The notes: generated by a model not told the origin, from the letters alone. Positions 2 to 38,299 are shown, counted from the first letter of the stretch. The stretch is DNA of 64,000 nt from an uncultured Victivallales bacterium (GCA_964424705.1 CAYRKB010000001.1:22575-86574); one strand, 5' to 3'. Program-made: numbers and translations.

Positions 2-160
2 GTCATCGGCAGTCGCTGCAAGCAATCCGGCATGCACTGGAGCGTGCCCGGCGCCCAACACGTCCTCGCCTTGCGCTGCATCCACGCCAGCAATCGCTTG
101 GCTGACTTCTGGAAACATCGCCTCTATAACCACGCCATACCACTCGCCCGGGCCGCCTGA
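2..160 (+). CDS. 3' end of an upstream gene truncated by the window edge; product unknown (C-terminal fragment ...GMHWSVPGAQHVLALRCIHASNRLADFWKHRLYNHAIPLARAA*)
   Basis: Open frame 2 runs from the window edge to TGA at 158-160 with no in-window start. I recognise no family; a vague transposase-C-terminus impression is unsupported. Confidence 0.3.
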   Translation, partial: VIGSRCKQSGMHWSVPGAQHVLALRCIHASNRLADFWKHRLYNHAIPLARAA

Positions 161-376
161 CGGAAGAATCTTGTCTCGCACCCTACGTTCCTGGCAGAAC
201 AGGGGCGCTGCTTCGGCCGGTCCGTCAGATCGCGGACGCGGATTGGGTGGCGTAACGGAGGATTGTGCCTTGGCCGGTATTGGCCAAACCTCTTGACGGC
301 GCGGTTGTTTGTGCATCACTATGACTCCGACATCGCTGGTACGGGCTGTCAGAAAACACCACGGGAGGACGCAAGT

Positions 377-967: not shown

Positions 968-1049
968 CGGAGCTAGCGAGCGGCACCCATCAGCAGGAGA
1001 CGAAAGGTTCTTTTTGCCTTTTCCGGCACGGTAGCAGAAAGGCCGTAGC

Positions 1050-17938: not shown

Positions 17939-18234
17939 GCCGGCTTCCTCTTGTGCGCGCGCTTTTCGCCGAATGCCGTTCGCGCCTGGACCTGCGTGCA
18001 CTTGTTGATGATCACCTCGTAGACGGCCTCGAGATGCTCGGGCGCCAGGGGGCCCTTGCCGGACTTGCGAATGCGCGCCAGAACCTGGCGCTCCCGGGTC
18101 GGGTCGAGGAGCGGCGCGCCGCAGCGGCGCTTTTCGGCTCCGATCTTCAGCGCGAGGGCCGCGCGCTGGTTGAGGATGCGCACCAGCCGCGTGTCGAGCA
18201 GGTCAATCTTTTGCCTGAGCTGGTCCAGCGTCAT
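17935..18234 (-). CDS. chorismate mutase (AroQ class)
   Basis: The 99-aa all-helical protein shows the AroQ pattern MTLDQLRQKIDLLDTRLVRILNQRAALALKIGAEKRR. Confidence 0.75.
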   Translation of the reverse strand: MTLDQLRQKIDLLDTRLVRILNQRAALALKIGAEKRRCGAPLLDPTRERQVLARIRKSGKGPLAPEHLEAVYEVIINKCTQVQARTAFGEKRAHKRKPA

Positions 18235-18940
18235 GGGCCTGTTCTCCTTCCGCAGCCTCCGCTATTTCCGGCGGGGCTTCCGCCCCGGGCGTTGCGCCGG
18301 GCGGTTCCGCCGCGGCCGCCGCCGGCCCGGTCGCGTGCTCGTTCTTGTCGGCTTCAATCATCTCGCGGCGCAGCATGGGCTCGAGATCCCCGAGTTCGTC
18401 GAGGCTGCGCAGTCCGAACTGTTCAAGAAACGTCTGCGTTGTGCCGTAGAGGAACGGCCGGCCCGGGAGATCGCTTCGTCCCACGATGCGCACGAGCTGC
18501 ATTTCCATGAGAAGCTTGAGGATGTGATCGATCGTTACGCCGCGGATGCCTTCAATCGTGATTTTCGTCACCGGCTGGCGGTAGGCGATGATCGCGAGCG
18601 TCTCCAGCGCCGGGCGAGACAGGCGGCTGGGCTTGCCGAGGTCAAGCAGATGCCGCAGCCAGGCGCCGCAGGCCGGGTCGCTCTCAAGGCGGAATCCGCC
18701 CGCCACTTCGCGCAGCACGAACCCCGCCCGCACCCGCTGCAAGTCGACGGCGAGCTCCTGCACGGCGGCCGCGACGTCCGCTTCGCGCACTTCGGCGAAA
18801 GGCGCCAGCGGCCCCTTCTGTTCTTCGGCCACGGCCACCACGCATTTTCGCATTTCGGCGATCTTTAGAGGGCGCTCCGCCCCGAAAATGATCGCGCCCA
18901 GGATCGTTTTCAACTCAGGAACCACGGAGACCTCTTCCAT
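18203..18940 (-). CDS. scpB: segregation and condensation protein B
   Basis: Two winged-helix ScpB repeats (...LETLAIIAYRQPVTKITIEGIRG...) are followed by an acidic Ala/Pro-rich tail. Confidence 0.85.
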   Translation of the reverse strand: MEEVSVVPELKTILGAIIFGAERPLKIAEMRKCVVAVAEEQKGPLAPFAEVREADVAAAVQELAVDLQRVRAGFVLREVAGGFRLESDPACGAWLRHLLDLGKPSRLSRPALETLAIIAYRQPVTKITIEGIRGVTIDHILKLLMEMQLVRIVGRSDLPGRPFLYGTTQTFLEQFGLRSLDELGDLEPMLRREMIEADKNEHATGPAAAAAEPPGATPGAEAPPEIAEAAEGEQAHDAGPAQAKD

Positions 18941-18956
18941 AGCGAGTGCCCTTCCT

Positions 18957-19700
18957 CTACCGCGCTGCTTCCGCCTCCACTGCTGCCTCGATCGTGATTT
19001 CGCCGAACCGCTCTTTTTGCTTCACGTCCACCTGCCGGAGGCGGATAAGCTCCAGCAGCGCAAGGAACGTGCAAATGACCTCATGGCGGCTCGCCTGGGG
19101 GTGGAACATGTCCGCAAAGCGGACGGCCCGCTCCGCGGCGACGCGCCTCAGAATCTTTTCCAGCTGGTCGGCCACGGTGAAGTTTTCGCCGTAGATTTCA
19201 CGGATCTCTTCGGGCCGGGCGCTCTTGAGCACCTCGCGGAACGCGGTGATCAGATCGAACAGGCTCACGTCCTGCATGCCGACGTCGGGCTCCAATTCGA
19301 GCACGACGTTCGGGCCGCCCAGCGCGAATACGTTTTCACGCTCGTAGGCAATCTCTTCCAGCCGTCCGGCGGCATCCTTGAACTTCTTGTATTCGATTAG
19401 CTGGCGCACCAGGTCCCAGCGCGGGTCCTCGCCTTCCTCCTCCTCCAGCTCGGGGCGCTCCTCCACCGGGAGCAGCATGCGGCTCTTGATCATCATCAGC
19501 GTGGCGGCCATGACGATGAATTCCCCGGCGATGTTCAGGTCGAGCATTCGCATCAGGCTCAGGTATTCCATGTACTGGGTGGTGATGCGCTCGATGGGGA
19601 TGTTGTAGATGTCCACCTCTTCCTTCTTGATCAGGTAGAGGAGGAGATCGAGCGGCCCCTCGAACACTTCAAGCTGCACTTTGTAGTCGTCAATTGCCAT
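18957..19700 (-). CDS. scpA: segregation and condensation protein A
   Basis: The ScpA N-terminal signature is FEGPLDLLLYLIKKEEVDIYNIPIERITTQY, and the gene lies immediately upstream of scpB. Confidence 0.85.
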   Translation of the reverse strand: MAIDDYKVQLEVFEGPLDLLLYLIKKEEVDIYNIPIERITTQYMEYLSLMRMLDLNIAGEFIVMAATLMMIKSRMLLPVEERPELEEEEGEDPRWDLVRQLIEYKKFKDAAGRLEEIAYERENVFALGGPNVVLELEPDVGMQDVSLFDLITAFREVLKSARPEEIREIYGENFTVADQLEKILRRVAAERAVRFADMFHPQASRHEVICTFLALLELIRLRQVDVKQKERFGEITIEAAVEAEAAR

Positions 19701-19721
19701 GGTGGTGCCGTGTGAAAACTG

Positions 19722-20687
19722 TTATTCGAGGCCAACGGATTGCCGGGCGTTCTTTAGGGTCTTGGCGGCTTCCGCGCGGGCGCGCTCCGCGCCCTGGCTG
19801 AGCACGGACTCGACATACCCGAGATTGTTGGCAAGTTCGGTCCGACGGCGGCGGAACTCTGCAAAGTAAGCTTGGATCGCCGCGAGCAGCGCCTTCTTGG
19901 CGTCGCCGTAGCCGGTGCCCCCGCGGCGGTAGCGCTCTTCCATGTCGCGGAGGTCGGCCTCGCCGGCGACAAGCCGGTAAAGCGCCATGATGTTGCACTT
20001 GGCCGGATCCTTCGGGGACTCCATCGGCGTGCTGTCCGTGACGATCCGCATCACGCGTGCCTTCGTTTCCTTTTCGTCGCCGAAGATCTCGATGTGGTTG
20101 TTGTAAGACTTCGACATCTTCTGCCCGTCGATCCCCGGCACGACCGCCACGGCGTCGCGGATCGAGGGCTCCGGCACCGTGAAGATGCCGGGGCCGTACT
20201 GGTTATTGAACTTGATCGCCAGGTCGCGCGCCACTTCGACATGCTGCTTCTGGTCGCGGCCGACGGGCACTACGTTGGACTGGTAGGCCAGGATATCCGC
20301 CGCCATCAGGACGGGATAGGCAAACAGCCCGTGGCTTGCCCCCAGGCCGCGCGCGGTCTTGTCCTTGTACGAATGGCAGCGCTCCAGAAGTCCCATGGGC
20401 GTGATGGTCGAGAGAATCCAGGTCAGTTCCGTGACCTCCGGGACGTCGCTTTGCCGGAAGAAAACCGTCCGCTTCGGGTCCAGGCCGCAGGCCAGAAAGT
20501 CCAGTGCGACGTCGAGCGTCGCCGCGCGCAGCGCAGCCGCATCCGTGACTGTGGTCAGCGCGTGATAGTTCGCGATGAAGAGGTAGGCGTCGCCCTGCAT
20601 TTGCAGTTCGAGGGCCGGCTTCATCATGCCGAAATAGTTTCCGAGGTGCAACTTGCCCGAGGGCTGTATACCCGATAGGATTCGCAT
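19722..20687 (-). CDS. trpS: tryptophan--tRNA ligase
   Basis: HIGH-type (GKLHLGNY) and KMSKS motifs are present; length is 321 aa. The ATG at 20687 was verified by frame counting. The track ORF continues upstream into the repeat element. Confidence 0.9.
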   Translation of the reverse strand: MRILSGIQPSGKLHLGNYFGMMKPALELQMQGDAYLFIANYHALTTVTDAAALRAATLDVALDFLACGLDPKRTVFFRQSDVPEVTELTWILSTITPMGLLERCHSYKDKTARGLGASHGLFAYPVLMAADILAYQSNVVPVGRDQKQHVEVARDLAIKFNNQYGPGIFTVPEPSIRDAVAVVPGIDGQKMSKSYNNHIEIFGDEKETKARVMRIVTDSTPMESPKDPAKCNIMALYRLVAGEADLRDMEERYRRGGTGYGDAKKALLAAIQAYFAEFRRRRTELANNLGYVESVLSQGAERARAEAAKTLKNARQSVGLE

Positions 20688-20775
20688 AGCTGTTGACTCC
20701 ACTCCGCTTAGGTGGGGTAACATAGCCAAGACAGTGGGTTTTACAAAGAAAAAGTTCTGCGTGAGATGGCGGGGG

Positions 20776-21070
20776 GCGTATGTGAGTTCCGGAGACCGCC
20801 GCCCGGGGGAGATGCGGCGAAGCTCGGAGCGAACGCGGTGGGGGCACCGCGACTCCAGCGGAACGTCTGATTTCGCTCGTTTCCGTGCTCCTGGAGACGC
20901 GACGCCCTCGTCGCGGGGTGCAAGAGGAGGAGCGAGAGAACGCGGCGGGGTCGCCGCATCTCCAGTCGGAGTTGCCCGTTGTCGCTCCCGGCTTGCTCCT
21001 GGAGATGCCCTCGTCGCGGAGATAAAGAAACGCGCCTGAACGGACACCTCCCCGGAACTCACATGCGCCC
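20776..21070. repeat. MITE-like palindromic repeat element, copy 1 (long variant, ~295 bp) with 20-bp terminal inverted repeats
   Basis: The termini are gcgtATGTGAGTTCCGGag ... ctCCCCGGAACTCACATgcgccc. Internal nested palindromes include ggagatgcggcgac/gtcgccgcatctcc and cgcgacgccctcgtcgcg. A second copy at 59259-59451 is >90% identical. Copy 1 carries a ~110-bp internal duplication or insertion. Confidence 0.7.
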
Positions 21071-21091
21071 GATGGCGGGCGTGTTGAAACG

Positions 21092-24000
21092 GTGTTGAAA
21101 GCTCTTGAAGAGAAGTCCGGTAATAAGTACAAGGGCGCAGGGTACTTCGGAGGCCAACAGGGTCGCATGTTCAAACTCCACGAGTCTCAGGTGAGAAACG
21201 AAGGCGCGGGCCAGCGGTGGCACGTCAAGTTTTCCGAGGACTGTGTTTTCGGCCCCGTCGGCCTTCCGGAGCTGCGCGACTGGGCGGAGCAGGGCCGCAT
21301 CGTAGCGGGCAACCTTTTGTCGCGAGACCGCGAGAGCTGGATGCCTGCCGAGAGTTTGCCTGAGCTCGATATGATGTGGGTCGCCGAACTGGGCGGCCGC
21401 CGTCGGTTCGGGCCGTTCAACCTGGCAACGGTGCCCCTGCTTGTCAAACGAGGCAAAATCAACAGAGCTACGCCGCTGCAGCACTGCAGCACGGGCGAGG
21501 TCCGGTTGGTTTCGTCAGTCCTGGAGAGCGGGGCCAAGCAATTGACGTATTCAATCCCCGCTCCCGTCACCGTGAGAACGGCGGATGTCAAAACGGACGG
21601 TGAGCCACGCTCGAGTGGAGCTGAGAAGGGCGGGCCTGCTGCGCCCGTTGCCGTGAAGAGGATTCAAGACGAAGGATTGCCTGACAGGAATGACCAGGCA
21701 CACAAGGCCCTGCGCAGTGAGCTGTCGGCGTTGCAGGAAAGTGTAGCCCGGGCGAAACAAGAACTTGAGATGGAGCGTGTCCGGGCTGTTGCGCTGGAGT
21801 CCGCCGCCAACCAGAAGCAAGGCCACGCTGCTGACGTCGAGAAGAAGCTAGCCGCGGAGAAAAATCTGCGTGAGGAACAAGCTGACCGCTTGAAGAAGAC
21901 TCAGGCTGAAGCCGCTGCTTTCGCTGCGAAGGCCACGAAGGTTGAAGCCGAGCTGAATCGTGAGCTGAGCGCTGCAACGGAACGCGCGGCTGTCGCAGCG
22001 CGCGAGGTTGCGGCTGAGCGGAGCCGGGCTGCGGCGCTGGAGTCCGCCGCCAACCAGAAGCAAGGCCAAGCTGCTGACATCGAGAAGAAGCTAGCCGCCG
22101 AGAAGAAACAGCGCGAAGAACAAGCTGAGCGCTTGAAGCAGGCGCAGTTTGAAGCCGCTGCTTTTGCTGCGAAGGCCACGAAGGTTGAAGCCGAACTGAA
22201 GCGTGAACTGAGCGCTGCAACGGAACGCGCGGCTGTCGCAGCGCGCGAGGTTGAGGCTGAGCGGAGCCGGGCTGCGGCGCTGGAGGCAGCCGCCAACCAG
22301 AAGCAAGCACATGCCGTAGAGATCGAGAAAAGGCTTGCCGCGGAGATGAAGCTGCGGGAGGACCAGGCTGGCAGAATTGACAAGCTTGAGCGCGAGCTCA
22401 AAGCCCGCGCGGAGGAAGTCGGTCTTGCAGCCGGGCAATTGGATGAGCAGCGGAAAGCACGCGCCGGGCTGGAAGCTCAGATGCGCCGCAGTGAAAGGGA
22501 CCAGGCCGAACGCTCGAAGCAGTCGCAGGCAGAGGCCGTTTCTCTCTCTACAAAGGCCGCGACGCTTGAAGCTGAACTGAAACAAGCGCGGAGCGACGCG
22601 GCGGAGAGTGCTGCTGCTGCCGTCCGTGAAGGTGAAGAACGAATCAGGGCCCACGAAGCCCTGCAGCGCGAGCTGGCGGCCCTGCAGGAGCGTGCAGTCC
22701 AGGCGCGACGAGAGGTTGAGGCTGAGCGGAGCCGGTCCGTTACGTTGGAATACACGGCCAGCCAGAAGGAAGGGCATGCAGCAGAGATTGAGAGTAAACT
22801 CGCCGCCGAGAAGCAGCAGCGCGAAGGGCAGTCTGCGCTATTGAAGGAGGCGCGGGCCAAGGTCAGCGCCGTCGGCGCGAAGGTCGCAGCGCTGGAGAAA
22901 GCATTCGCGGAGGAGAGGCATCTGCACGAAGAGGTAGTCAGAAAATGGCTCGCGAAAGAAGCGGATCTCTCCGGCAGGATCGGCAAACTCGAGCAAGCGC
23001 TCAAGAATAAGGCGGAGGAAGCGGTCCGGGCCGTCGCGCAACTGGTCGAGCAGAAGAATGCGCATGCCGGGCTGGAGGAGCGCGGCCAGAGGCGTGAATT
23101 GGATCTGACGGGGCAGATTGGCCGCCTGACGGCAGAGAACGTGGAGCTACAGGCTGGTGTGCGCCAGAGCGCGGATGAACTGGCGCGAGCCCGGGCCGGT
23201 CTGGCGAGGGCTGCCGAGGCGAGCGTGGAACTTATGCAGCAATACCTTGGCCCGCAGGGAAGCGGCAAACCGACCTGGTACTTGCAGGGCGATGATAAGT
23301 CCGTGTACGGACCGGTTGATCTGTCTGAGCTTTGGGCCTGGGCCTGCCAGAGCCGCATTGGCCCGAAGCATAGCGTGTCGCAGGACAAGAAAAACTGGGT
23401 GATGGCCGAGACGATTCCCGAACTTCACATGGAGTGGATCTGTAAACTCCCGGACGGAGTAGACATCGGCCCGCTCAATCCGTTCGCTTACAGGGATCTC
23501 GTTGCTGATGGATCCGTAGATCCCGGGCAAGTGGTCCAGAGCCGCCTGAGCGGCGAGACGATTGCGGCCGGGGCGCTCGTTAAGGCCACGGAAGGCGGCA
23601 CATTCCTGCGGCGTACGTCAACTGATGCTGACAGGCAGAAGATGAAGGATTTGGAGGCCTGTCTAGCCCAGGCACGACGTGAGCTTGAGGAGGCGAGCGG
23701 CCGTTCCCGTACGCTGGAGGGTGCTATTGGCCAGAAGGAAGGGCAGGTCGCGGGGCTGGAGAAGAATCTCGCGGCGGAGAAGAAGCTGCGCGAGGATTTG
23801 GCAGGCAGGATCGATAAGCTTGAGCGGGCTCTAAAGGACAAGACAGACGAAGCGGGCAGGGCAGCCGCACAGCTGGGCGAGCAGAAGAAGGAGCATGCCG
23901 GACTGGAGATGCGCAGCCAGGTTCAAGAGCTGGAGCTGAAGGGACAGATCGGCCGCCTGACTGATGAGAGTTCCAGGAGAGCCCTGCAACTGGAGACGGA

Positions 24001-24718
24001 GAAGGCCCGGGCTGTTCAGGCGAGCGTGGAACTTATGCAACAATGCCTTGGCCCGCAAGGAAGCGGCACTCCGAGCTGGTATTTGCAGGGCGATGATATG
24101 TCCGTGTATGGCCCGGTTGACTTGCCTCAGCTTTGGGCCTGGGCCTGCCAGAGCCGCATTGGTCCGAAGCACAGCGTGTCGCAGGACAAGAAGAACTGGG
24201 TATTGGCCGAGACCGTTCCCGAACTTCGCATGGAATGGATCTGTAAGCTGCCTGACGGAGCAGACCTGGGCCCGCTCAACCCCTTTGCATTCAGGGATCT
24301 GGTTGCAGATGGGTTCGTAGATCCCGGGCAAGCTGTCCAGAACCACCTGAGTGGCGAGACGATTGCGGCCGGGGAGCTGGTTAAGGCCACTGAGGGCGGA
24401 GCGCTTTTGCGACATTTGGGACCGGGTCCTGACGGACGGGAATGGAAGCAGCGATGTTCCGCAGCTGAAGAACGAGGCAGGCTTGTTGACGAGGAGTTGG
24501 CCAGAGTGGGTAGCCTTTTCGAAGCTGAGAAGGCCCGGCGGCTTCAACTTGAGCATGATCTATTGAGGGCGCTTGAAGAGCTGGCTGGTGCGACGGCCCG
24601 GTTCCAGCTTTCCGTTGAAGCTCAGGGGCAGGGCGGAGCCGTGCCGCCACGGCGTCTGAGTGAGAAGCTTCTTGCCGCAGATCGGGCGGCGCGGGCCCTC
24701 AAGGGAACAAAGGGATAA
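21092..24718 (+). CDS. giant coiled-coil protein with N-terminal and twice-duplicated internal GYF-like (DUF4339) domain pairs
   Basis: The W-x-Y-x-GP-V...EL...W...ELxMEW pattern (WHVKFSEDCVFGPVGLPEL...; WYLQGDDKSVYGPVDLSELWAWA...ELHMEW) recurs three times. Long heptad-rich Ala/Glu/Lys/Arg segments lie between them. The track start is GTG at 21092; an ATG at 21167 (MFKLHES) with an upstream GGAGG is an alternative. Confidence 0.75.
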   Translation: MLKALEEKSGNKYKGAGYFGGQQGRMFKLHESQVRNEGAGQRWHVKFSEDCVFGPVGLPELRDWAEQGRIVAGNLLSRDRESWMPAESLPELDMMWVAELGGRRRFGPFNLATVPLLVKRGKINRATPLQHCSTGEVRLVSSVLESGAKQLTYSIPAPVTVRTADVKTDGEPRSSGAEKGGPAAPVAVKRIQDEGLPDRNDQAHKALRSELSALQESVARAKQELEMERVRAVALESAANQKQGHAADVEKKLAAEKNLREEQADRLKKTQAEAAAFAAKATKVEAELNRELSAATERAAVAAREVAAERSRAAALESAANQKQGQAADIEKKLAAEKKQREEQAERLKQAQFEAAAFAAKATKVEAELKRELSAATERAAVAAREVEAERSRAAALEAAANQKQAHAVEIEKRLAAEMKLREDQAGRIDKLERELKARAEEVGLAAGQLDEQRKARAGLEAQMRRSERDQAERSKQSQAEAVSLSTKAATLEAELKQARSDAAESAAAAVREGEERIRAHEALQRELAALQERAVQARREVEAERSRSVTLEYTASQKEGHAAEIESKLAAEKQQREGQSALLKEARAKVSAVGAKVAALEKAFAEERHLHEEVVRKWLAKEADLSGRIGKLEQALKNKAEEAVRAVAQLVEQKNAHAGLEERGQRRELDLTGQIGRLTAENVELQAGVRQSADELARARAGLARAAEASVELMQQYLGPQGSGKPTWYLQGDDKSVYGPVDLSELWAWACQSRIGPKHSVSQDKKNWVMAETIPELHMEWICKLPDGVDIGPLNPFAYRDLVADGSVDPGQVVQSRLSGETIAAGALVKATEGGTFLRRTSTDADRQKMKDLEACLAQARRELEEASGRSRTLEGAIGQKEGQVAGLEKNLAAEKKLREDLAGRIDKLERALKDKTDEAGRAAAQLGEQKKEHAGLEMRSQVQELELKGQIGRLTDESSRRALQLETEKARAVQASVELMQQCLGPQGSGTPSWYLQGDDMSVYGPVDLPQLWAWACQSRIGPKHSVSQDKKNWVLAETVPELRMEWICKLPDGADLGPLNPFAFRDLVADGFVDPGQAVQNHLSGETIAAGELVKATEGGALLRHLGPGPDGREWKQRCSAAEERGRLVDEELARVGSLFEAEKARRLQLEHDLLRALEELAGATARFQLSVEAQGQGGAVPPRRLSEKLLAADRAARALKGTKG
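21791..22400. repeat. intragenic 243-bp (81-codon) tandem repeat, ~2.5 copies, first two copies near-identical
   Basis: The unit gcgctggagtccgccgccaaccagaagcaagg... restarts at 21791, 22034 and 22277. It encodes LESAANQKQGxAADxEKKLAAEK...AAFAAKATKVEAELxRELSAATERAAVAAREVxAERSRAAA. Confidence 0.8.
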
Positions 24719-24770
24719 GCGCGGCCGATCCTTCGGCAGCGGAGCCCCATTCATCCGCCCGTTTCATGTT

Positions 24771-26081
24771 TCAGGCCCGCTTGGCGATGGCGGGTTCTGT
24801 CACGGTGCTGTCGGGCTTGACGCTGGAGTCTGTTCTCTTCTGCAGCTTGTCATGCAGGAATCTCGTCAGGGAATCGCCGCGCTGGGTGGCGGAGAGGCCC
24901 AGCGGCTCTCTCGCGTCCTTTGCCCCGAGCGCCGCAATATGTGCGGGGAGGATATCCTTCGTGATCGTGCCATTCTTCACCAGGGGCAAGATGTCGTTCG
25001 CGAGGTCGGCCACTTCCGTGTGGTTGCCCGGCCACGAGTAGCGCAACAGCAGCGAATGGGCTTCCGGAGAGATGACCGGGAGTTTGCTCCAATCTCCGGT
25101 GTGCTCATGGAAGAAGTGGGATAACAGGGGGAGCAGGTCCGCGGTCCTCTCCCGCAGCGGTTTCAAATCGATGGCCACGCCGCTCATCTTGGTGAGAAGG
25201 TCTCTCGATTCGCCAGCTTGTGACAGGCTGACCAACGATGCATCTGCCGACAGGATCAGGCTGGCCTTTCGGGCCAGCGCGCGGCCGCGATGAGCGTCTC
25301 CGGTGCCTGCCAGATGAAGGCGCAGCGTCTCAAGGAGACCGGGAGGCATCATCATTACCTCGTCCAGCAGGATGGTGCAGGGCTTTCTGCCCGCCTTTGT
25401 GTCGTCGGCCTGCGGCGCAGCGCTGGCGCCCCTCTTCGTTGTTTCAAAGAGCTGTTGATCCAGCACCGGCTCGGGCATCTCCGCGCAATTCAGGACAATG
25501 AACTCGCCGTTCTTTCTCGGGCTGCACTCATGAATGGCGCGCGCCAGCTGTGCCTTGCCGGTGCCTGCCTCCCCGCACAGAAGCACCGGCGATGATGTAA
25601 TCGCGGCGACCTCGATGGACTCGCAGACCTTCTGCATTTCTGGGCTCTCCGCGACGATCCCGGGAAACCGGTACGACACAGGGGCTGGGAGCGGAATGTT
25701 CTTGTCCGCGATGCGGGCGCTGACGCTGCCGAGAGCATTCCTGATGACGCTGACCAGCTCTTCGACACGGATCGGCTTGGTAACGTAGTCAAACGCGCCG
25801 GCGGCTATGGCTGATACGGCGGCCGTTTCCGTTCCCTGGCCTGACATCAGCACGACCGGCAGCCGCGGGCTCTGTATCTTCACAAGCGAAAGAAGCCGAA
25901 GGCCGTCCATGGGGTGCATACCCACGTCGGCGAGTATCAGATCAACGTGTTTGGCCTTGAGGCATTCCAGCGCTTCCAGGCCGCTTTGCGCTAACGTGAC
26001 CTCGTATTCCCGCTGGCTGAATACAGCTGAGAGGACGTTGAGAACCAGCCTGTTGTCATCCACAATCAGAATCGATGCCAT
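24771..26081 (-). CDS. response-regulator receiver + AAA+ (sigma-54-activator-like) protein lacking GAFTGA motif and DNA-binding HTH
   Basis: A receiver domain (MASILIVDD...ILADVGMHPMDG) and a Walker A (GEAGTGKAQLARAIH) are present. Where NtrC has GAFTGA the sequence reads LFETTKRGASAAPQ. The C-terminus has no Fis-type HTH. The track start is GTG at 26114; Met-12 at 26081 is the likely start. Confidence 0.7.
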   Translation of the reverse strand: MASILIVDDNRLVLNVLSAVFSQREYEVTLAQSGLEALECLKAKHVDLILADVGMHPMDGLRLLSLVKIQSPRLPVVLMSGQGTETAAVSAIAAGAFDYVTKPIRVEELVSVIRNALGSVSARIADKNIPLPAPVSYRFPGIVAESPEMQKVCESIEVAAITSSPVLLCGEAGTGKAQLARAIHECSPRKNGEFIVLNCAEMPEPVLDQQLFETTKRGASAAPQADDTKAGRKPCTILLDEVMMMPPGLLETLRLHLAGTGDAHRGRALARKASLILSADASLVSLSQAGESRDLLTKMSGVAIDLKPLRERTADLLPLLSHFFHEHTGDWSKLPVISPEAHSLLLRYSWPGNHTEVADLANDILPLVKNGTITKDILPAHIAALGAKDAREPLGLSATQRGDSLTRFLHDKLQKRTDSSVKPDSTVTEPAIAKRA

Positions 26082-26136
26082 GCAACACTCCCAGAGTTGG
26101 AGTGAGATAACCACGGTGGATTCGGACCGTCAAGGC

Positions 26137-26883
26137 TTATACTGCGGCGTAGAATTCAAGAGGCCTGATCCAGATGTTCCGGTAGCGCACCAGGTCGCCA
26201 TGATCCTGGAGCCGCAGCGGCGCCTCGGGCGGATGAGGCACATAACTCGACAGGGTGCGGTGGCAGGTTAGGCCGTGGAGCGCGCGGTGATGCTGCACCA
26301 CCACGCCATTTTGCAGGATGGTCAGGTAGGCTGGCGAGACGGTGCTCGTACCTTCGAAACGCGGTGCCACAAAGAGGATGTCGTAGGTCTGCCATTCGCC
26401 GGGCCTTCGGCAGGCGTTGACCAGCGGGGAAAACTGCCCGTAGATCGAGCCGGCGCTTCCGTCCGGATAGGTCGGATTCTGAAAACAATCCAACACCTGG
26501 ATCTCGTACCGGTCCATCAGGAAGACCCCGCTGTTGCCGCGCCCCTGGCCGTCGCCTTTGACGACGGACGGCGCGGACCACTCTACGTGAAGCTGGCAGT
26601 CCCCGAAGCCCTGCTTTGTGCTGATGTCGCCTGCGCCCGGGACGACTTCCATACATCCGCTGTGCAGCTTCCATCGCGCCGCGCCGCCGCCCTCCGCACT
26701 GCTTCTCCATCCGTCGATGCTACTCCCGTCGAACAGAATGACCGCGTCCGACGGCGGCTGCCCCGGCGCCTCCGCAGAAGAGGGCGTGCCGGGGCTGACT
26801 ATGCGCGGTTGGGGGCGACGTCCGTCGTGAACGGTCCACTTTCCTCCAGGAAGCAGGGGCGTATCTTCGTATCCGAGCGACAT
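26137..26883 (-). CDS. DUF1080 (3-keto-disaccharide hydrolase / LamG-like) domain protein
   Basis: The motifs ...WKLHSGCMEV...GNSGVFLMDRYEIQVLD...PLRLQDHGDLVRYRNIWIRPL match the DUF1080 family. ATG at 26883 (MSLGYEDT) was chosen. Confidence 0.75.
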   Translation of the reverse strand: MSLGYEDTPLLPGGKWTVHDGRRPQPRIVSPGTPSSAEAPGQPPSDAVILFDGSSIDGWRSSAEGGGAARWKLHSGCMEVVPGAGDISTKQGFGDCQLHVEWSAPSVVKGDGQGRGNSGVFLMDRYEIQVLDCFQNPTYPDGSAGSIYGQFSPLVNACRRPGEWQTYDILFVAPRFEGTSTVSPAYLTILQNGVVVQHHRALHGLTCHRTLSSYVPHPPEAPLRLQDHGDLVRYRNIWIRPLEFYAAV

Positions 26884-31186: not shown

Positions 31187-32061
31187 CCGTACGGCGCGCG
31201 AAAGCGGCCGGCGGGCGGAAGCGAAGGCCGGGCCTCGATCGCCTGCTCAAGGTGGTGGCCACTCTGCGCGGGCAGGGGGGCTGCCCGTGGGACCGCGAGC
31301 AGACTCTGGAATCCCTCAAGCGTTACGTCATCGAGGAAAGCTACGAGCTTGTCGATGCCGTTGAGTCAGGCGACCCGGCCCGCCACTTGGAAGAGCTGGG
31401 AGACGTGCTGCTGCAGGTCGCGCTGCACGCCCAGATTCGCAGCGAGGAAGGGCGGTTCGCCTTCGACGACGTGGCGGCCGCGCTTGCCGACAAGCTGATC
31501 CGCCGCCATCCCCACGTCTACGGGCAGGCCAAGGCCCGTGACTCCGCGGCCGTCTTGAAGAACTGGGAAGTCATCAAGGCGGGCGAGAAGGCGTCCGGCC
31601 CGCGCTCGGTGGTGGAGGGTATTCCGCGCCACCTTCCCGCGCTGCACCGGGCGCAGCGCATCCAATCGCGCGTTGCGCGCGTCGGGTTCGACTGGAAGCG
31701 CGTCGACGCCGTGCTTGAAAAGGTGGAAGAGGAGATCGGCGAGCTGCGCGCCGCGATGAAGCGCAAGAACGCACGCATGGTGCGCGAGGAGATCGGCGAC
31801 CTTCTCTTCACGATTGTCAATTTCTGCCGCTTCCAGAACGTTGACGCTGAAGAGGCCCTTGAGCTGACGATCAACAAGTTCCTCGCCCGATTCCGGATTG
31901 TGGAGGCGCGCGTGTTTGCGTCGGGACGCAAGCTGACCGACTGCACGCTGAAGGAACTCGACGGCTACTGGGATGACGCCAAGCGGGAGCTGCGCGCCCC
32001 GGCGCGCAGGAGGAAGCGCAGCGGGCCCGCGCAGAAGCGTGGGGCGAAGACGGGGAAATGA
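31183..32061 (+). CDS. mazG: nucleoside triphosphate pyrophosphohydrolase MazG
   Basis: Two MazG repeats with EExxE/ELGDxL motifs are present (...ESYELVDAVESGD...ELGDVLLQV...; ...EEEIGELRAAM...EIGDLLFTIVN). The GTG start overlaps the upstream TGA. The track ORF 30961..32061 includes an out-of-frame upstream extension. Confidence 0.85.
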   Translation: MTVRRAKAAGGRKRRPGLDRLLKVVATLRGQGGCPWDREQTLESLKRYVIEESYELVDAVESGDPARHLEELGDVLLQVALHAQIRSEEGRFAFDDVAAALADKLIRRHPHVYGQAKARDSAAVLKNWEVIKAGEKASGPRSVVEGIPRHLPALHRAQRIQSRVARVGFDWKRVDAVLEKVEEEIGELRAAMKRKNARMVREEIGDLLFTIVNFCRFQNVDAEEALELTINKFLARFRIVEARVFASGRKLTDCTLKELDGYWDDAKRELRAPARRRKRSGPAQKRGAKTGK

Positions 32062-32197
32062 CAAAGAGGGCATCGGCGGCTGTCTCTGGCGATTCCCCCC
32101 GCACGTAGGGTTGCGGATTCGCTCCGCCGTTCCTTCTTCTCTCTTGCATCATGAAATCCGTGCCAGGGGACATCCGGGCCAAGGTGATCGGGACGCC

Positions 32198-34039
32198 ATG
32201 ACAGAATATCGGGCACTGATGGACCGGATGGGGAGCGGCTGGAATACGTGGTATGTGAAGAGCATGCTTGCGCACGTGCTCATGCCGGAGGGCCTGGTGA
32301 TCAACCTTGGCCTGAAGGAGTATCGCGGCGGACAGCATCTGCGAGAGATCTTGAAGGGCCCCATTAACGTCGTTCCGGGATTGCGTTCCTATGACGGCGC
32401 CTATACGGACCTGACGCTCACCTGGGAAGACATCGGGCTGCGGGTGCAAACCGGGTTGGACGGCGACGATTGGGTCGCGCTGGTGACCCCGCTTGCCATG
32501 CAGAAGTGCCCGGCGCTGCTTGTGGCGGAATGCGGCTTGCTCTGGAACCGACCCGGCTCGTGGCGATGGGAAGGCGGCATCCTGCGCGGCGAAGCAGGCG
32601 CGCGGCGCGTCGATCTCTTCACCACAGCGGCCCCGGTCCCGGAGGGATGTCTATGGGCGCTGTCGCCCTACCTGGCCGTGTCCCTCGCGGGGACTGTGGG
32701 GTTGAGCACGGGGCGGGCGAGAAGCCTGGCGGACATCGAGACGATTCTGGCAAGGCAGCGGGGCATTGAGGAGCAGCGCATGGCCCGGTACGGCGAGCTG
32801 GCCGAGGTGGCGCGCGCCACCCGCGCGGTGCTCGCCTGGAACACCATCTATGACCCTGTCCGGCGCCGCGTGATCACGCCCGTGGCGCGCACCTGGTGCA
32901 GCACCCACGGATGGGTCCTGTTCGAGTGGGATACGTTTTTTGCGGCGTACATGCTGTCGCTGGACAATCCGGATCTGGCCATGGCGAACGCGATCGCCAT
33001 TACCAGCGAGATCACGCCGGAGGGGCTGGTTCCCAATTTCGTCAACGCCACCGGCTTTTCCAGCCGGGATCGATCCGAGCCGCCGGTCGGCGCGTGGGTG
33101 TGCCGGGAGATCTATCGTGGCCATCGCGTTCGCTGGTTCCTGGAGGAAGTCTACCCGAACCTGCTGACCTGGAACCGCTGGTGGTGGCGGGCGCGCCGCA
33201 ACAACGGCGACCTGCTGTCCTGGGGATCCACACCCTACGAGTCTGTCTACGATGCCTACTGGGAGAAGAACGGCGTAAATGAGCGGTTCGGCGCGTCGCT
33301 GGAGTCGGGCCTCGACAATTCGCCCATGTATGACGATGTGCCTTTCGACAGCAGCCGGCACGTCCTGCAAATGTGGGACGTGGGGCTGAACGGGCTGTAC
33401 GTCGCGGACTGCGAGGCGCTCGCCGACATCGCCGATGTCCTGGGCCGCACCGCGGAGGGCGCGGAACTTCGGACGCGAGCCGAGGCCGTGCGCGCTGGCA
33501 TGTCCGCGGAGCTGTGGGACGGGCCGTTTGGCCTCTTCCTGAACAAGCGCGTGGATACGGGCGAATTGAGCCGGCGCATTTCTCCGACGAATTTCTATGC
33601 CCTCCTCGCGCAGGCGGCGACGCCCGGGCAGGCGGAGCGAATGATTCGCGAGCACTTCTACAATCCGGCTGAGTTTTGGGGCGAGTGGGTTCTGCCCTCG
33701 ATTGCGCGCAACGACCCTGCCTACCCGGAGCAGAGCTACTGGCGCGGAAGGATCTGGGGCCCCATGAACTTCCTGGTCTACGTGAGTCTACGCCGCTGCG
33801 GACAGGCCCAGGCGCGCCTGGACCTTGTGGAGAAGTCCATGGCGCTGCTGCTGAAGAGCTGGCGCTCGCACGGTCATGTGCTCGAGAACTACAACGCCGA
33901 GACCGGCGACAACAGCGTCGCGCAAGGCAAAGCCGGCGGGGACTCATTCTACTACTGGGGCGGCTTGCTGGGCACCATTGCGCTCATGGAGGCGGGCTAC
34001 TACCCTTCGCCCGAGGCGCCGCTCGGCGGGGAAAGGTGA
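32198..34039 (+). CDS. GH63-like six-hairpin (alpha/alpha)6 glycoside hydrolase with N-terminal beta-sandwich domain (YgjK-like)
   Basis: Aromatic-rich toroid signatures are present (...WGPMNFLVYVSL..., ENYNAETG, YYWGGL). ATG at 32198 (MTEYRALMDRMGSGW) is chosen; the track start is at 31973. Confidence 0.7.
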   Translation: MTEYRALMDRMGSGWNTWYVKSMLAHVLMPEGLVINLGLKEYRGGQHLREILKGPINVVPGLRSYDGAYTDLTLTWEDIGLRVQTGLDGDDWVALVTPLAMQKCPALLVAECGLLWNRPGSWRWEGGILRGEAGARRVDLFTTAAPVPEGCLWALSPYLAVSLAGTVGLSTGRARSLADIETILARQRGIEEQRMARYGELAEVARATRAVLAWNTIYDPVRRRVITPVARTWCSTHGWVLFEWDTFFAAYMLSLDNPDLAMANAIAITSEITPEGLVPNFVNATGFSSRDRSEPPVGAWVCREIYRGHRVRWFLEEVYPNLLTWNRWWWRARRNNGDLLSWGSTPYESVYDAYWEKNGVNERFGASLESGLDNSPMYDDVPFDSSRHVLQMWDVGLNGLYVADCEALADIADVLGRTAEGAELRTRAEAVRAGMSAELWDGPFGLFLNKRVDTGELSRRISPTNFYALLAQAATPGQAERMIREHFYNPAEFWGEWVLPSIARNDPAYPEQSYWRGRIWGPMNFLVYVSLRRCGQAQARLDLVEKSMALLLKSWRSHGHVLENYNAETGDNSVAQGKAGGDSFYYWGGLLGTIALMEAGYYPSPEAPLGGER

Positions 34040-35451: not shown

Positions 35452-37353
35452 CTATTCTTCCGCCGCTCTCCGTGCGCGGGCTCGCACTGTGCCGATGACA
35501 ATGCGCGGGGGCGGCGGCGCCTCCTGCGGCGAGGACGAGGGAGCGCCCGGGATCATGTGCCGATCGATGGCCGCCGCGGCGTGGTCCTTGATGGTCAGCG
35601 CCCGCCGGAACTCCGCGAGTTCCTTCTCCAGCCGCAGAATCGTGTTGCGGAGCTCAAGGGCCAGGGGGTGCGCGAGCTCCGCGGCCGTAAGCTTTGTCCC
35701 CGTGCGGCAGTTCGTGACGGCTGCGCCCGGCTGCGCGGAGCCGTCCTTCACGAGATGGGAAACGGCGAGCAGGTTTACGGGGCCATACCCGGTGCCGTCG
35801 ACGAGCTGGATGCTCCACTCCATGCAAAGCTCCGGGACCTCGCGCGCCTTGCGCCACGGCGCCCCGTCCCGCGCAACCTCGGTGTCGGGCGCGATGCGAC
35901 AGTCAGCGGCCCACGCATACATCTCGGTGGTTGAGACCGGGCCATAGACAGATTCGCCGAACTTGGCTGTCCATCGCGCGGGCTCGGCAATCGCGCGCAG
36001 AGACGAGAGGTCCCGCGCGAAATCGGCGGCGGCGCGCTCCTGAGCGGCGCGCACTTCACGGACTTCAGCGCGCAGCGCGCCGTTTTCCCGCTGCCGTGCG
36101 GCGGCATCCCGGTCGGACTCGTCTGCCCGGTGTCTTGCCGCCCGCAGAGCCTTCTCCGTTTCGGCGCGCTGCTGCTCCGCAGCCTCAAGATTCAGGGACA
36201 GACGCTCGCCCTGCGCGGCGCCCGCAGCCTGCTCCTGCCGCAGCGCTTCGGCGGCGCGTTGTGCCCCGGCGAGTTCGCTTTGCAGGGCGGCCGCGCGGGA
36301 CAGCGAGTCTGTCTGCCGGGCTTCGAACTCCGCGCCGGCCTGGCGCAGCTGGCGGATTTCCGCAGCGCCCTTCTGCGCCTGGATGGCAAACTCGTCTTTC
36401 GCCTGGATCAGGCACTTCTTGAGATTCTCGACGTCCTGCCGCAGCGCTTCAGAGGCGCGCTGCGTCCCGGCGAATTCGCTCTGCAGGGCTGCCATGCGGG
36501 CCTGCATGTCCGCATGCCGGGTTTCAAGGCTCTCGTTGAGAAGCTGAAGCGCGCGCGCCTCCGCAGCGCCTTTTTGGGCCTGTTCAGCGGCATGGCCATT
36601 CGCCTGATCCATGCTCCTTTTATGATTTGTCGCCGCCTTCTTGAGCTCCTCGTTCTCGCGGCGGAGGTTGGCGAGCGCCTTGGTGGCCTTGGCATTCGCA
36701 TCCGTGGCGACTTCGCTGTCGGCCGTATTCTTTTTCTGGCGCTGCAGTTCGATGCGGGCGGCTTCAAGGAGCAGGTTGGCGGTGTGCAGGTCGTCCTGCG
36801 CTTTGTCGAGGCGCCCGGCGGATAGGGCGAGCTCGTCCGCGTGGCGGGCCTGCGCTCGCTCCAGTTCGCTGAGGCGCGCGTGCAGGGCCTTGACTTCCTC
36901 CTGCGCAGCGGCGGGTTGGCCGGTCGCAGTGGCCGGGTCGGACGGCGGCAGCGCGAAACTCCCCTGGGAAGAAGACGCTTCGAGACCGGCCGGGTTGACG
37001 AACGACGCGACCGCCACCGTGCGGCCGGTCAACCGATGCGTCAGCGTGCAGGCGGGATCGAGGAGACCGTGCTGGATAAGGTGCGGCACGGCGAGCAGAT
37101 TGAATGGTCCGAATTCCTTGCCGTCGACCCGGCGGCCGAGCCACTCCATTTTCAGGTCCGGCAGGTTTGTGGCCGGCATCCACAGCTTGCGGTCGTGCGA
37201 CACCTCGTCGCCCCCGGCCACGCGCCCGGCCTCGGCCCATTGCGCGAGGACGAGGTAGGAGACCGGCCCGTACACGTTGGCGCCCGGCGTGCGAAGGTAG
37301 AACTGAAGCTCGTTCAGGACCGCCGCGCTAGGTCTGTAATCCTTCTCTGACAT
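35452..37353 (-). CDS. coiled-coil protein with N- and C-terminal GYF-like (DUF4339) domain pairs; paralogue of 21092..24718
   Basis: The N-terminus is ...VYGPVSYLVLAQWAEAGRV...LPDLKMEW...GPFNLLAVPHLIQHG. The C-terminus is ...VYGPVSTTEMYAWAADCRIAP...ELCMEW...GPVNLLAVSHLVKDG. The middle contains ~60-aa degenerate coiled-coil repeats (KGAAEARALQ...). An ATG at 37353 was verified. Confidence 0.75.
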   Translation of the reverse strand: MSEKDYRPSAAVLNELQFYLRTPGANVYGPVSYLVLAQWAEAGRVAGGDEVSHDRKLWMPATNLPDLKMEWLGRRVDGKEFGPFNLLAVPHLIQHGLLDPACTLTHRLTGRTVAVASFVNPAGLEASSSQGSFALPPSDPATATGQPAAAQEEVKALHARLSELERAQARHADELALSAGRLDKAQDDLHTANLLLEAARIELQRQKKNTADSEVATDANAKATKALANLRRENEELKKAATNHKRSMDQANGHAAEQAQKGAAEARALQLLNESLETRHADMQARMAALQSEFAGTQRASEALRQDVENLKKCLIQAKDEFAIQAQKGAAEIRQLRQAGAEFEARQTDSLSRAAALQSELAGAQRAAEALRQEQAAGAAQGERLSLNLEAAEQQRAETEKALRAARHRADESDRDAAARQRENGALRAEVREVRAAQERAAADFARDLSSLRAIAEPARWTAKFGESVYGPVSTTEMYAWAADCRIAPDTEVARDGAPWRKAREVPELCMEWSIQLVDGTGYGPVNLLAVSHLVKDGSAQPGAAVTNCRTGTKLTAAELAHPLALELRNTILRLEKELAEFRRALTIKDHAAAAIDRHMIPGAPSSSPQEAPPPPRIVIGTVRARARRAAEE

Positions 37354-38281: not shown

Positions 38282-38299
38282 CGGCGACCGGGGCGTAAT

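Follow-up and report, generated by a model that had tools for sequence, protein, structure and literature searches.

Coiled-coil-rich proteins of bacteria include crescentin, FilP, Scy, and AglZ, and golgins and EEA1 are long coiled-coil tethers of eukaryotes. The canonical signature of eukaryotic GYF domains, which includes the G-Y-F tripeptide, forms the pocket for PPG peptides, and to our knowledge, GltJ is the only bacterial GYF protein that has been studied experimentally. In Myxococcus, AglZ is a coiled-coil protein with a proline-rich segment to which the GYF domain of GltJ binds; bacterial GYF domains are over-represented in the PVC group, and nearly all of them are without the residues of the G-Y-F tripeptide (PMC11135422).

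We analyzed the protein p1 and its paralogue p2, both encoded in a window of 64,000 nt (the whole stretch of DNA that was analyzed). A sequence-only reading had described p1 as a coiled-coil protein carrying pairs of GYF-like (DUF4339/GYF_2) domains, and this identity was borne out by a profile match together with the fold. The Pfam GYF_2 profile (PF14237) matched three stretches of p1 (E=1.3e-17, 63.7 bits against a gathering cut-off of 25.8) and also matched p2 (E=7e-12, 45.4 bits). The ORF that had been placed at 21092-24718 is present as the longest ORF of p1, with 1208 aa from a GTG start at 21092. The public call P0001, which is 100% identical to p1, has 1183 aa starting from Met26; the sequence GGAGG is located 13 nt 5' of the ATG at 21167, and the Met26 start puts the first module at residue ~18, matching the rest of the family, so ATG 21167 is the likely start. 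The module borders in p1 were determined with a profile made from the module copies in the window itself, and the modules fall close to where they had been located before. The same kind of search over the 64-kb window found no module copies beyond those in p1 and p2 (Table 1).

Table 1. Features of p1, p2, and the adjacent regulator gene. Positions count from the first letter of the window; p1 residues follow the 1208-aa numbering.
Feature	Position (nt)	Residues	Strand	Basis or remark
p1, GYF-pair coiled-coil protein	21167..24718		+	1183 aa; ATG 21167 likely start
Module 1, N-type tandem-GYF pair	21206..21556	39-155	+	own-copy profile, GYF_2
Pro/Ala/Gly-rich linker, probably disordered	21554..21658	155-189	+	direct reading
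Main coiled-coil rod	21704..23236	205-715	+	composition, heptad statistics
243-nt (81-aa) tandem repeat in rod	21781..22350		+	2.3 copies, 89% match
Duplication copy A (coiled-coil segment + module 2)	22877..23611	596-840	+	self-comparison
Module 2, C-type tandem-GYF pair	23255..23617	722-842	+	own-copy profile
Second coiled-coil segment, modules 2 to 3	23624..24046	845-985	+	heptad statistics
Duplication copy B	23741..24412	884-1107	+	self-comparison
Module 3, C-type tandem-GYF pair	24056..24415	989-1108	+	own-copy profile, identity matrix
C-terminal helix, 65 residues	24434..24628	1115-1179	+	AF2, heptad test
Tail motif AVPPRRLSEKLLAADRAARAL	24638..24700	1183-1203	+	tail survey, AF2
NtrC-like response regulator (receiver + sigma-54-type AAA+ domain), convergent with p1	24771..26114		-	domain matches
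p2	35452..37353		-	633 aa; GYF_2 match, module profile
p2 tail motif APPPPRIVIGTVRARARR	35467-35520		-	tail comparison
p2 C-type module	35638-35997	453-572 (p2)	-	profile
p2 coiled coil	35980-36906		-	heptad z=5.0 for p2 aa 150-458 (home-made test)
p2 N-type module	36964-37320	12-130 (p2)	-	profile

Each module of ~115 aa consists of two GYF folds in tandem, small alpha/beta units with the beta-beta-alpha-beta-beta topology of solved GYF domains, which supports the pairing of domains proposed from the sequence. The pair is an obligate unit: the best stretches span profile positions 5-112, and the second half scores under the Pfam thresholds. In the alignment, the site of the G-Y-F tripeptide reads [GSC]-R-[IV] (e.g., SRI, GRI, or CRI) and thus departs from the canonical signature, in agreement with the general loss of these residues in bacterial GYF domains (PMC11135422). 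By analogy with GltJ, the modules may be regarded as candidate peptide-binding adaptor domains. The transfer of function from GltJ to a tandem pair is uncertain, since the GYF of GltJ is a single domain with a non-canonical binding surface. The identity of module 1 is 45-50% when it is compared with orthologues' N-terminal modules and drops to 27-28% when it is compared with modules 2 and 3 of p1 itself. A classifier of module subtype, for which the training set was five proteins, assigned later modules to the C-type in 45 of 50 cases and the modules of the TM/OmpA proteins described below to the N-type in 19 of 19. By these comparisons, the N-terminal (N-type) and C-terminal (C-type) modules are distinct, position-specific subtypes that are conserved family-wide.

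The coiled-coil spacers expected between the modules were supported by composition, heptad z-scores, and a 65-residue helix in the AF2 model. The main rod of ~510 aa, which would measure ~76 nm if it were a continuous coiled coil, is composed of 70-86% A/E/K/R/Q/L/D with Pro+Gly at ~4%. Over aa 205-715, a home-made test with shuffles as the control, which is not a standard coiled-coil predictor, gave z=6.0 for the occupancy of heptad positions a and d and z=5.8 for a periodicity of 3.5 residues. The second segment (~140 aa, ~21 nm) gave z=4.3 and z=5.4 in this home-made test against shuffles, and the modules gave negative heptad values and no periodicity. The C-terminal helix spans residues 131-195 of the AF2 model, where the pLDDT reaches 98 (heptad z=2.6, same home-made test). 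Pro-rich linkers are placed after the N-terminal module in p2, P0002, and P0003 in a manner similar to that of p1.

Internal duplication is a source of variation both in the rod and in how many C-type modules are present. In the tandem repeat of the rod, units 1 and 2 share 66 of 81 identical residues (dS ~0.24). Between module copies 2 and 3, the identity is 79% across 148 aa and 86% in the core (103/120 aa), and their DNA is 87% identical over 300-391 nt at a spacing of 801 nt; the coiled-coil part of the duplicated unit has ~50-70% protein and 62-82% DNA identity. The internal segmental duplication reported by the sequence-only reading is therefore real, but its size is about 0.7 kb and not ~0.65 kb, and the reported protein identity of 85-90% holds roughly for the module core but not for the preceding coiled coil. 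Calling the duplication recent was an overstatement, as the dS between module copies 2 and 3 is ~0.56 (dN/dS ~0.2), that of the coiled-coil part is ~0.9, and P0008, an orthologue of p1 at only 32-50% identity, has the same three-module layout. On these grounds, the duplication is either old, with copies homogenized by gene conversion, or independently recurrent. It is not an assembly artefact, since an independent JGI metagenome contig matched window positions 18167-26400 at 99.988% and gap-free, and another assembly encodes a 1183-aa protein that differs from p1 by one residue.

The extent of the module family was taken from an exhaustive search of representatives, which gave 2061 cluster representatives at E<=1e-3; word-indexed homologue searches gave 3 and 4 matches. 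Two to four modules are carried by 51 of the 155 analyzed proteins, typically with one module starting the protein at about residue 15 and at least one other close to the C-terminus, and the rods in the family reach about 1400 residues. The source-named members, which are few, are all Verrucomicrobiota or Lentisphaerota. p1 is a member of this large, unstudied family of Verrucomicrobia/Lentisphaerae-type bacteria. No relative was found when the species-representative genomes were searched with P0001. As a separate observation, an AroA scan of species-representative genomes found the nearest ones to be Lentisphaerota and Verrucomicrobiota MAGs at 56-58% identity.

The family includes a sister architecture in which the N-type module and rod are followed by a TM helix and an OmpA-like peptidoglycan-binding domain, replacing the C-terminal cassette of p1. 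In a Pfam scan of 17 long single-module proteins, OmpA was above the cut-off in 13, weak in 1, and absent in 3, and one TM-like segment was present in all 17 as well as in two unscanned proteins. The positive-inside count of the sister proteins was nearly balanced (54 vs 44), so their topology was assigned from the known periplasmic role of OmpA-like domains. The N-type module and rod lie across the TM helix from the periplasmic OmpA domain, and thus the rod of the sister proteins would be cytoplasmic. Neither a signal peptide nor a lipobox is present in p1 or p2, both are without a TM segment and a sorting signal, and the Pfam scan gave no OmpA, LysM, or PG_binding match. These features, together with the sister-protein topology, suggest that p1 is soluble and cytoplasmic. 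A secreted or surface-exposed fibrillar adhesin or spacer, in line with the surface tether considered previously, shares with p1 only the general likeness of long repetitive surface proteins with variable repeat numbers. This assignment is very improbable considering the missing export and anchoring signals, the position of the sister N-type module on the non-OmpA side of the single TM helix, and the intracellular location of characterized GYF domains (PMC11135422).

By comparison with the sister proteins, the C-terminal cassette of p1, composed of the C-type modules and a basic PPK tail, would sit where the sisters have their envelope anchor. Across the family, the tail follows the consensus [LA]-P-P-[KR]-x-[VI]-R-x-x-[LIV], then basic residues. 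The motif was found in 39 of 70 tails, compared with 1.9 expected from shuffles, and always 14-31 residues from the C-terminus; the strict motif is absent from about 44% of the tails. The tails have a net charge of +3.2 and a mean hydrophobicity of -0.37, and binding of the tail to a membrane is not obvious due to this strong polarity. In the AF2 model of module 3 to the tail (pLDDT 88), the terminal helix has a pLDDT of about 90 and starts after the PP kink. The conserved basic tail would be a new, previously undescribed candidate short linear motif. Two explanations for the tail were considered and set aside. Docking of the PPK tail in cis on the last module is geometrically unlikely in the model, as the 65-residue helix lies between them. 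Homology of the tail to the juxtamembrane region of the TM-OmpA proteins is unproven; few of these have P-x-x-[KR]-x-[LIV] ahead of their TM helix, an example of such a stretch being LPPQRVAVII in P0058.

The C-type module and the PPK tail occur together as one cassette, and this co-occurrence also speaks for a self-assembling cytoskeletal filament or network, in which the GYF pairs of each molecule would hold its neighbour by the Pro-rich linker or PPK tail and dimers would polymerize head-to-tail. Such a polymer would resemble those of crescentin, FilP, or Scy, with a latch between domain and peptide as the difference. Every complete member has candidate receptors (the GYF pairs) and candidate ligands (the Pro-rich linker and the invariant PP in the tail), and the two module subtypes could make the assembly directional. 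However, the TM-OmpA sisters keep the N-type module although they have neither the C-type module nor the PPK tail, which means that some further ligand of the N-type module must exist, and the share of tails without the strict motif also argues against such assembly. We therefore consider the filament unlikely. The Pfam Filament profile, with a cut-off of 40 bits, had no match in p1 and p2 and only sub-threshold matches in P0058 (20.7 bits) and P0062 (23.4 bits).

The claim of a p1 paralogue in the window was confirmed by the two modules of p2 and its GYF_2 match, and p2 is of the same design as p1 at a smaller scale. Downstream of p1, adjacency to the convergent response regulator gene is kept beside the orthologue P0008 (locus L005), where the regulator, also convergent, is 46% identical to that of the window. 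On this basis, p1 might couple to two-component systems as an adaptor for signalling or polarity, like the GltJ-AglZ/FrzS module of Myxococcus, where a regulated platform is made up of receiver-domain proteins, coiled coils, and a GYF domain. A receiver-domain or histidine-kinase gene adjoins family members in about four of about eight independent neighbourhoods: the sigma-54-type regulator in convergent orientation in the window and at L005, a divergent histidine kinase, alone or together with a response regulator, at L002 and L026, a histidine kinase and response regulator immediately upstream on the same strand at L024, and PilZ immediately upstream with a kinase/regulator pair nearby at L004. 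Nevertheless, such a coupling is quite unlikely, because gene orientation and regulator type vary by locus, L006/7, L025, L027, L028, and L029 are without such a neighbour, and no conserved operon partner was found among the approximately eight neighbourhoods. Neither the neighbouring response regulators nor the PilZ protein has a proline-rich segment as a candidate GYF ligand, the sampled loci are few, and two-component genes are abundant.

On its other side, p1 is divergent from trpS-scpA-scpB. This adjacency, a weak SMC_prok_B match, and the label "chromosome segregation ATPase" given to the family member P0016 by one source could point to an SMC-like chromosome-segregation protein. The NCBIfam SMC_prok_B match is confined to the coiled coil and scores 19.5 bits, below the cut-off of 567, p1 has no ATPase head or hinge domain and no Pfam SMC_N match, and scpAB is not beside the p1 orthologue at L005. 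The SMC annotation and the scpAB link are thereby effectively refuted, and this assignment is almost certainly wrong. The remaining large ORFs of the window showed no related machinery, an Rfam scan upstream of p1 gave no match, and promoter and terminator scans yielded nothing informative.

Considering these results, we lean towards a scaffold or tether role for p1, as a soluble and putatively polar rod in the cytoplasm that carries adaptor domains at both ends, and the cytoskeletal, tether, or spacer role proposed from the sequence is still the best functional guess. The C-terminal end of p1 would dock on an envelope-proximal site or partner, and the N-type module would thereby be held tens of nanometres off, where it could capture a proline-rich client. 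The extra C-type modules from the duplication may raise avidity at the anchor end, and the gain or loss of repeats may adjust the rod length. The choice of anchor end in p1 follows from positional analogy with the TM-OmpA architecture only. An extension to the whole family, which we hold as a tentative and rather doubtful possibility, is a PVC-clade group of putatively polar, very long cytoplasmic tethers in which the distal N-type pair captures a client and the proximal end is fixed to the envelope either covalently (TM and OmpA-like domain) or non-covalently (C-type pairs and the basic [LA]-P-P-[KR]-S-[VI]-R-x-x-L motif). If true, it would be a bacterial counterpart of the eukaryotic long coiled-coil tethers that could place structures at set distances (tens to >100 nm) from the wall of cells whose biology is largely unexplored.

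Taken alone, p1 is an uncharacterized "hypothetical protein" with a known domain, and the value of this analysis lies in the definition of the family, with no new mechanism demonstrated. In this family, which has thousands of members, GYF domains form obligate pairs of two position-specific flavours that sit at the rod ends. Should the proposed tether or scaffold role be correct, cell architecture in the PVC group would have a major organizer in this family, with the PPK tail as a new short linear motif that lends itself to easy testing. The alternation between the TM-OmpA anchor and the C-type GYF with its tail provides a natural experiment for dissecting function.

Among known systems, GltJ of Myxococcus xanthus (PDB 7z3c; PMC11135422) is a membrane protein of the gliding machinery with a single GYF behind a zinc ribbon, and its coiled coil is on a separate polypeptide, whereas p1 has GYF pairs that are joined to the coiled coil itself, at either end, and is without a zinc ribbon, TM segment, or MglA/AglZ context. 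In comparison with the eukaryotic GYF proteins (CD2BP2, GIGYF1/2, and Smy2), the modules of p1 are obligate pairs with [GSC]-R-[IV] in place of the tripeptide. [quoted passage not shown] The sister architecture follows the logic of PodJ of Caulobacter, with a coiled coil in the cytoplasm, a single TM helix, and a peptidoglycan-binding domain in the periplasm. PodJ and the FimV/HubP-type polar landmark scaffolds have no known sequence relationship to the family, and p1 and p2 are without the TM helix and peptidoglycan-binding domain; the envelope anchor of this type is found only in the sisters. In AglZ and FrzS, an N-terminal receiver is fused to the coiled coil, whereas p1 and p2 have no Response_reg match and the regulator gene of p1 is separate, next door. 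The intermediate filament-like rod signature of crescentin and FilP is above threshold in none of p1, p2, P0058, and P0062. A very long heptad-repeat rod is common to p1 and to crescentin, FilP, Scy, AglZ, golgins, and EEA1, and the rod length of the p1 family evolves through repeats, a likeness to coiled-coil cytoskeletal and tether proteins. As in p1, the golgin and EEA1 tethers carry different binding elements at their two ends.

The GYF-pair coiled-coil gene (p1) was found where the sequence-only reading had placed it, and its open reading frame encodes 1208 aa when counted from the first GTG; residue numbers follow this frame. Public gene calls start at Met26 (ATG 21167) and give an 1183-aa protein (P0001) that matches the window at 100% identity, this ATG has a GGAGG 13 nt upstream, and with this start the first module opens at residue ~18, the family-wide position, so 21167 was taken as the start. 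The window contains two 94% identical copies of a GC-rich intergenic sequence (~140 nt, with strong predicted structure): one precedes the p1 start by ~100 nt, and the other follows a UvrD-like helicase gene. An Rfam search with the copy upstream of p1 gave no match. The sequence may be either a short repeated element or a regulatory region common to both loci.

Features of the p1 and p2 regions and of family neighbourhoods on outside contigs
Feature	Contig	Position (nt)	Strand	Remark
~140-nt element, first copy	window	20934-21070		
p1 ORF	window	21092-24718	+	
81-aa tandem repeat	window	21781-22350		243-nt unit, 2.3 copies, 89% match
Duplicated unit, first copy	window	22877-23611		aa 596-840
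Duplicated unit, second copy	window	23741-24412		aa 884-1107
p1 tail motif	window	24638-24700		AVPPRRLSEKLL
NtrC-like response regulator	window	24771-26114	-	p1 convergent neighbour
Glycoside hydrolase	window	31973-34039	+	
Glycoside hydrolase	window	34154-35359	+	convergent with p2
p2 ORF	window	35452-37353	-	633 aa
p2 tail motif	window	35467-35520		APPPPRIVIGTVRARARR
ABC-ATPase/FtsX gene pair	window	37532-38974		
1842-aa ORF	window	40097-45625	+	
~140-nt element, second copy	window	59310-59451		
PilZ-domain gene	L004	7646-7984		17 nt upstream of family member
Histidine kinase with or without response regulator	L002	6056-7681		beside family member
Histidine kinase with or without response regulator	L024	661-5115		beside family member
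Histidine kinase with or without response regulator	L026	3559-4698		beside family member
MotA_ExbB, TonB_2, TolB-like gene, OmpA/Pal	L028	8841-12255		
ExbD	L002	13359-13742		

The assignment to DUF4339 made from sequence alone was borne out by Pfam GYF_2 (PF14237, formerly DUF4339), which matched p1 in three stretches (E=1.3e-17) and its smaller paralogue p2 (E=7e-12). Alignment of the five copies in p1 and p2 defined a unit of ~115 aa, 20 positions of which are invariant, with the consensus W-Y/H-L..V-Y/F-GPV..L..WA...RI.....VS.D...W..A...PEL-MEW...L.DG...GP.N......L...G. A profile built from this alignment recovered the same five copies, and no further ones, from the six-frame translation of the window. 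The AlphaFold2 model of the module, built on an alignment of 50 diverse modules from the family, consists of two successive beta-beta-alpha-beta-beta subdomains (pLDDT 88.5, pTM 0.77). The second half has diverged below Pfam thresholds in the window copies; weak matches to GYF_ATXR3 were obtained with homologues and to GYF_2 with the first p1 module, and direct reading of the five-copy alignment shows that this half keeps the spacing GP[FL]-x4-phi-x2-L-x3-G-x-phi. These results identify the module as a tandem GYF pair, as the sequence-only reading had proposed. By profile and by fold p1 is a GYF_2 member, and it lacks the canonical eukaryotic GYF signature: [GSC]-R-[IV] stands where the name-giving G-Y-F triad is expected, a replacement typical of bacterial GYF domains (PMC11135422).

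When 1.84 billion cluster representatives were searched exhaustively with a profile, 2061 proteins matched at E<=1e-3, of which 1058 reached E<=1e-10; among the matches listed, nearly all best stretches covered the whole ~110-residue unit. Named members are 'hypothetical protein' entries from Verrucomicrobia and Lentisphaerae MAGs and 'OmpA family protein [Verrucomicrobiota]', and a single 'chromosome segregation ATPase' label was judged to be wrong. The AroA encoded in the window is at most 58% identical to species representatives, the best being Lentisphaerota and Verrucomicrobiota MAGs. In the sample of 155 proteins analysed (best matches listed plus cluster members), 51 carry two to four modules. 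Almost all of these have a module near residue 15 and the others close to the C-terminus, with spacers of about 30 to 1300 residues between modules. The N-terminal module of p1 shares 45-50% identity with its counterparts in orthologues and only 27-28% with the C-terminal modules of the same protein; the latter in turn share 50-54% with the C-terminal modules of orthologues. The modules thus fall into two subtypes, N-type and C-type, tied to position. When two profiles trained on five proteins were applied to the remaining ones, later modules were C-type in 45 of 50 cases, as were all internal single modules from C-terminal gene fragments (21/21), and 85 of 121 first, N-terminal modules were N-type; truncated gene calls probably lie behind many of the exceptions among first modules.

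The spacers agree with the Ala/Glu/Lys/Arg-rich heptad repeats claimed earlier. Residues 205-715 and 845-985 of p1 and 150-458 of p2 consist of 70-86% A/E/K/R/Q/L/D and 4-8% Pro+Gly, and a home-made test of heptad register on hydrophobic residues, with shuffles as reference, gave z values of 6.0, 4.3 and 5.0, respectively, and negative values on the modules. AlphaFold2 predicted p1 aa 1115-1179 as a single 65-residue helix (pLDDT up to 98). If it is a continuous coiled coil, the main rod of p1 would be ~76 nm long.

Direct-repeat, BLAST and codon-level comparisons located two duplicated units of ~0.7 kb with small indels. In the module core, the copies are 86% identical in protein (79% over 148 aa) and 83-90% in DNA, with dS ~0.56 and dN/dS ~0.20; the coiled-coil part reaches ~50-70% in protein and 62-82% in DNA, with dS ~0.90 and dN/dS ~0.48. 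The module duplication is real, with selection maintaining both copies. Of the earlier description, a recent ~0.65-kb duplication ~85-90% identical including the coiled coil, the duplication and the identity of the module core stand, whereas the unit is longer, its coiled coil more diverged and its origin not strictly recent. P0008, an orthologue collinear with p1 (32% identical overall, ~50% in modules), has the same N-C-C layout, yet the two C-terminal modules are more alike within each genome (82% and 57%) than between the two genomes (50-54%), which suggests either an ancestral duplication homogenised by gene conversion or two separate duplications. The p1 coiled coil also contains an 81-aa tandem repeat that the sequence-only reading missed. 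Its units 1 and 2 have 66 of 81 residues in common, and their dS of ~0.24 indicates a younger event than the module duplication; an older version of the unit occurs five times along the protein by direct-repeat analysis. The repeat length is not divisible by 7. An assembly artefact, a possibility raised earlier, is excluded for both repeats, since an independently assembled JGI contig (L001) matches window 18167-26400 gap-free at 99.988% and an 1183-aa protein in another assembly differs from p1 at one residue.

The last module is followed by a helical stretch of 30-90 residues and a conserved tail. Of 70 proteins with a tail of 25-130 residues, 39 contain the strict pattern P-[PG]-[KRQ]-x-[VILM] (1.9 in shuffled tails); its distance from the C-terminus is always 14-31 residues, and its density in this region is about 58-fold that in the remainder of the proteins. 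Conservation extends outside the selection pattern (L/A at -1, R at +5, L/I/V at +8, Arg-rich +9 to +11), giving the consensus [LA]-P-P-[KR]-x-[VI]-R-x-x-[LIV] followed by basic residues, with a net charge of +3.2 over 14 residues. The motif is found in p1, p2, P0002, P0007, P0008 and many others, and the p1 tail was modelled by AlphaFold2 as a helix following a GQGGAVPP break. This tail is a candidate GYF ligand or anchor peptide. The main rival to a scaffold role, head-to-tail self-assembly via GYF-tail or GYF-linker contacts, is considered rather unlikely.

Many single-module members outside the window have a sister layout: an N-type module, a coiled coil of 150-1400 residues and a single hydrophobic helix, ending in an OmpA-family peptidoglycan-binding domain (P0062, P0068, P0073, P0093, P0074, P0075, P0082, P0104, P0116, P0128 and others). 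Pfam OmpA scored above cut-off in 13 of the 17 proteins scanned and weakly in one (P0059); P0058, P0083 and P0155 gave no OmpA match at E<=0.01. A hydropathy scan found one TM-like segment in all 17 and in P0132 and P0148, which were outside the Pfam scan, and the two-profile classifier assigned all 19 modules to the N-type. OmpA-like domains work in the periplasm and these proteins have no N-terminal signal peptide, so the module and rod are inferred to be cytoplasmic; K/R counts around the TM helix show only a weak charge bias (54 vs 44).

The p1 gene is monocistronic; trpS-scpA-scpB diverge from it, and an NtrC-like response regulator gene converges on it. The AAA+ domain of this regulator looks degenerate: the Pfam Sigma54_activat match is limited to positions 1-115 of 168, FETTKRGASAAP stands where the GAFTGA loop is expected, and no C-terminal HTH domain was detected. 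The orthologue locus L005 keeps the same atypical regulator (46% identical) beside the gene, and its upstream genes differ. The p2 gene diverges from genes for ABC-transporter ATPase and FtsX permease and converges with a glycoside-hydrolase gene, itself preceded on the + strand by a second hydrolase, mazG and a yjeF-family gene; P0013, a p2 orthologue, directly adjoins mazG. Compared with L006, where the p2 orthologue has its syntenic locus, the hydrolase pair (MGH1-like/GH63-type) is inserted between mazG and p2. The 1842-aa ORF, whose sole Pfam match is an FtsX-like permease domain near the C-terminus, lies downstream of a separate ABC-ATPase/FtsX gene pair. No operon is conserved across about eight independent family neighbourhoods. 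Two-component genes adjoin members in about 4 of these and a PilZ gene in one, a weak lead on function; a polarity adaptor linked to two-component systems would account for the kinase and regulator genes, but with no conserved operon and no Pro-rich stretch in the adjacent regulators we regard it as improbable. Two members have Tol-Pal/ExbBD-type genes within a distance of 1-2 kb, which may be coincidental.

In summary, p1 is a soluble, cytoplasmic protein, with no signal peptide or TM segment, in which heptad-repeat rods carry tandem GYF folds at the ends and a basic conserved tail, and the GYF subtypes differ by end. GltJ uses a non-canonical beta-sheet surface of its GYF domain to bind, at micromolar affinity, the coiled-coil protein AglZ in its proline-rich segment (PMC11135422), and by analogy the GYF pairs may be peptide-binding adaptors. 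We lean towards a tethering, spacing or scaffolding role for p1. In p1, the C-type modules and PPK tail form a C-terminal cassette that would sit where the TM-OmpA envelope anchor sits in the sister form, making the C-terminus the likelier attachment end; that this cassette attaches and the N-type pair binds a client at the far end is a tentative proposal. Duplication of the C-type module might add avidity, and gain or loss of 81-aa repeats might tune reach. Two other readings of p1, as a surface adhesin and as an SMC protein, were essentially excluded, and p1 gave no match to the IF-like Filament profile.

Taken alone, p1 is an unremarkable 'hypothetical protein' that carries a known domain; its family is large, has a striking architecture and is directly testable now. 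Full-text searches that covered GYF_2/DUF4339, GYF domains of bacteria, and GYF combined with coiled coils or OmpA yielded no account of the coiled-coil dumbbell, the N/C subtypes, the PPK tail or the TM-OmpA sister form; planctomycete pairs of GYF domains are mentioned in passing in a different context (PMC7159879). Among known systems, AglZ is a receiver fusion, which p1 is not, and PodJ is an anchored scaffold; p1 itself is not anchored in this way, whereas the sister architecture of its family has a PodJ-like layout.
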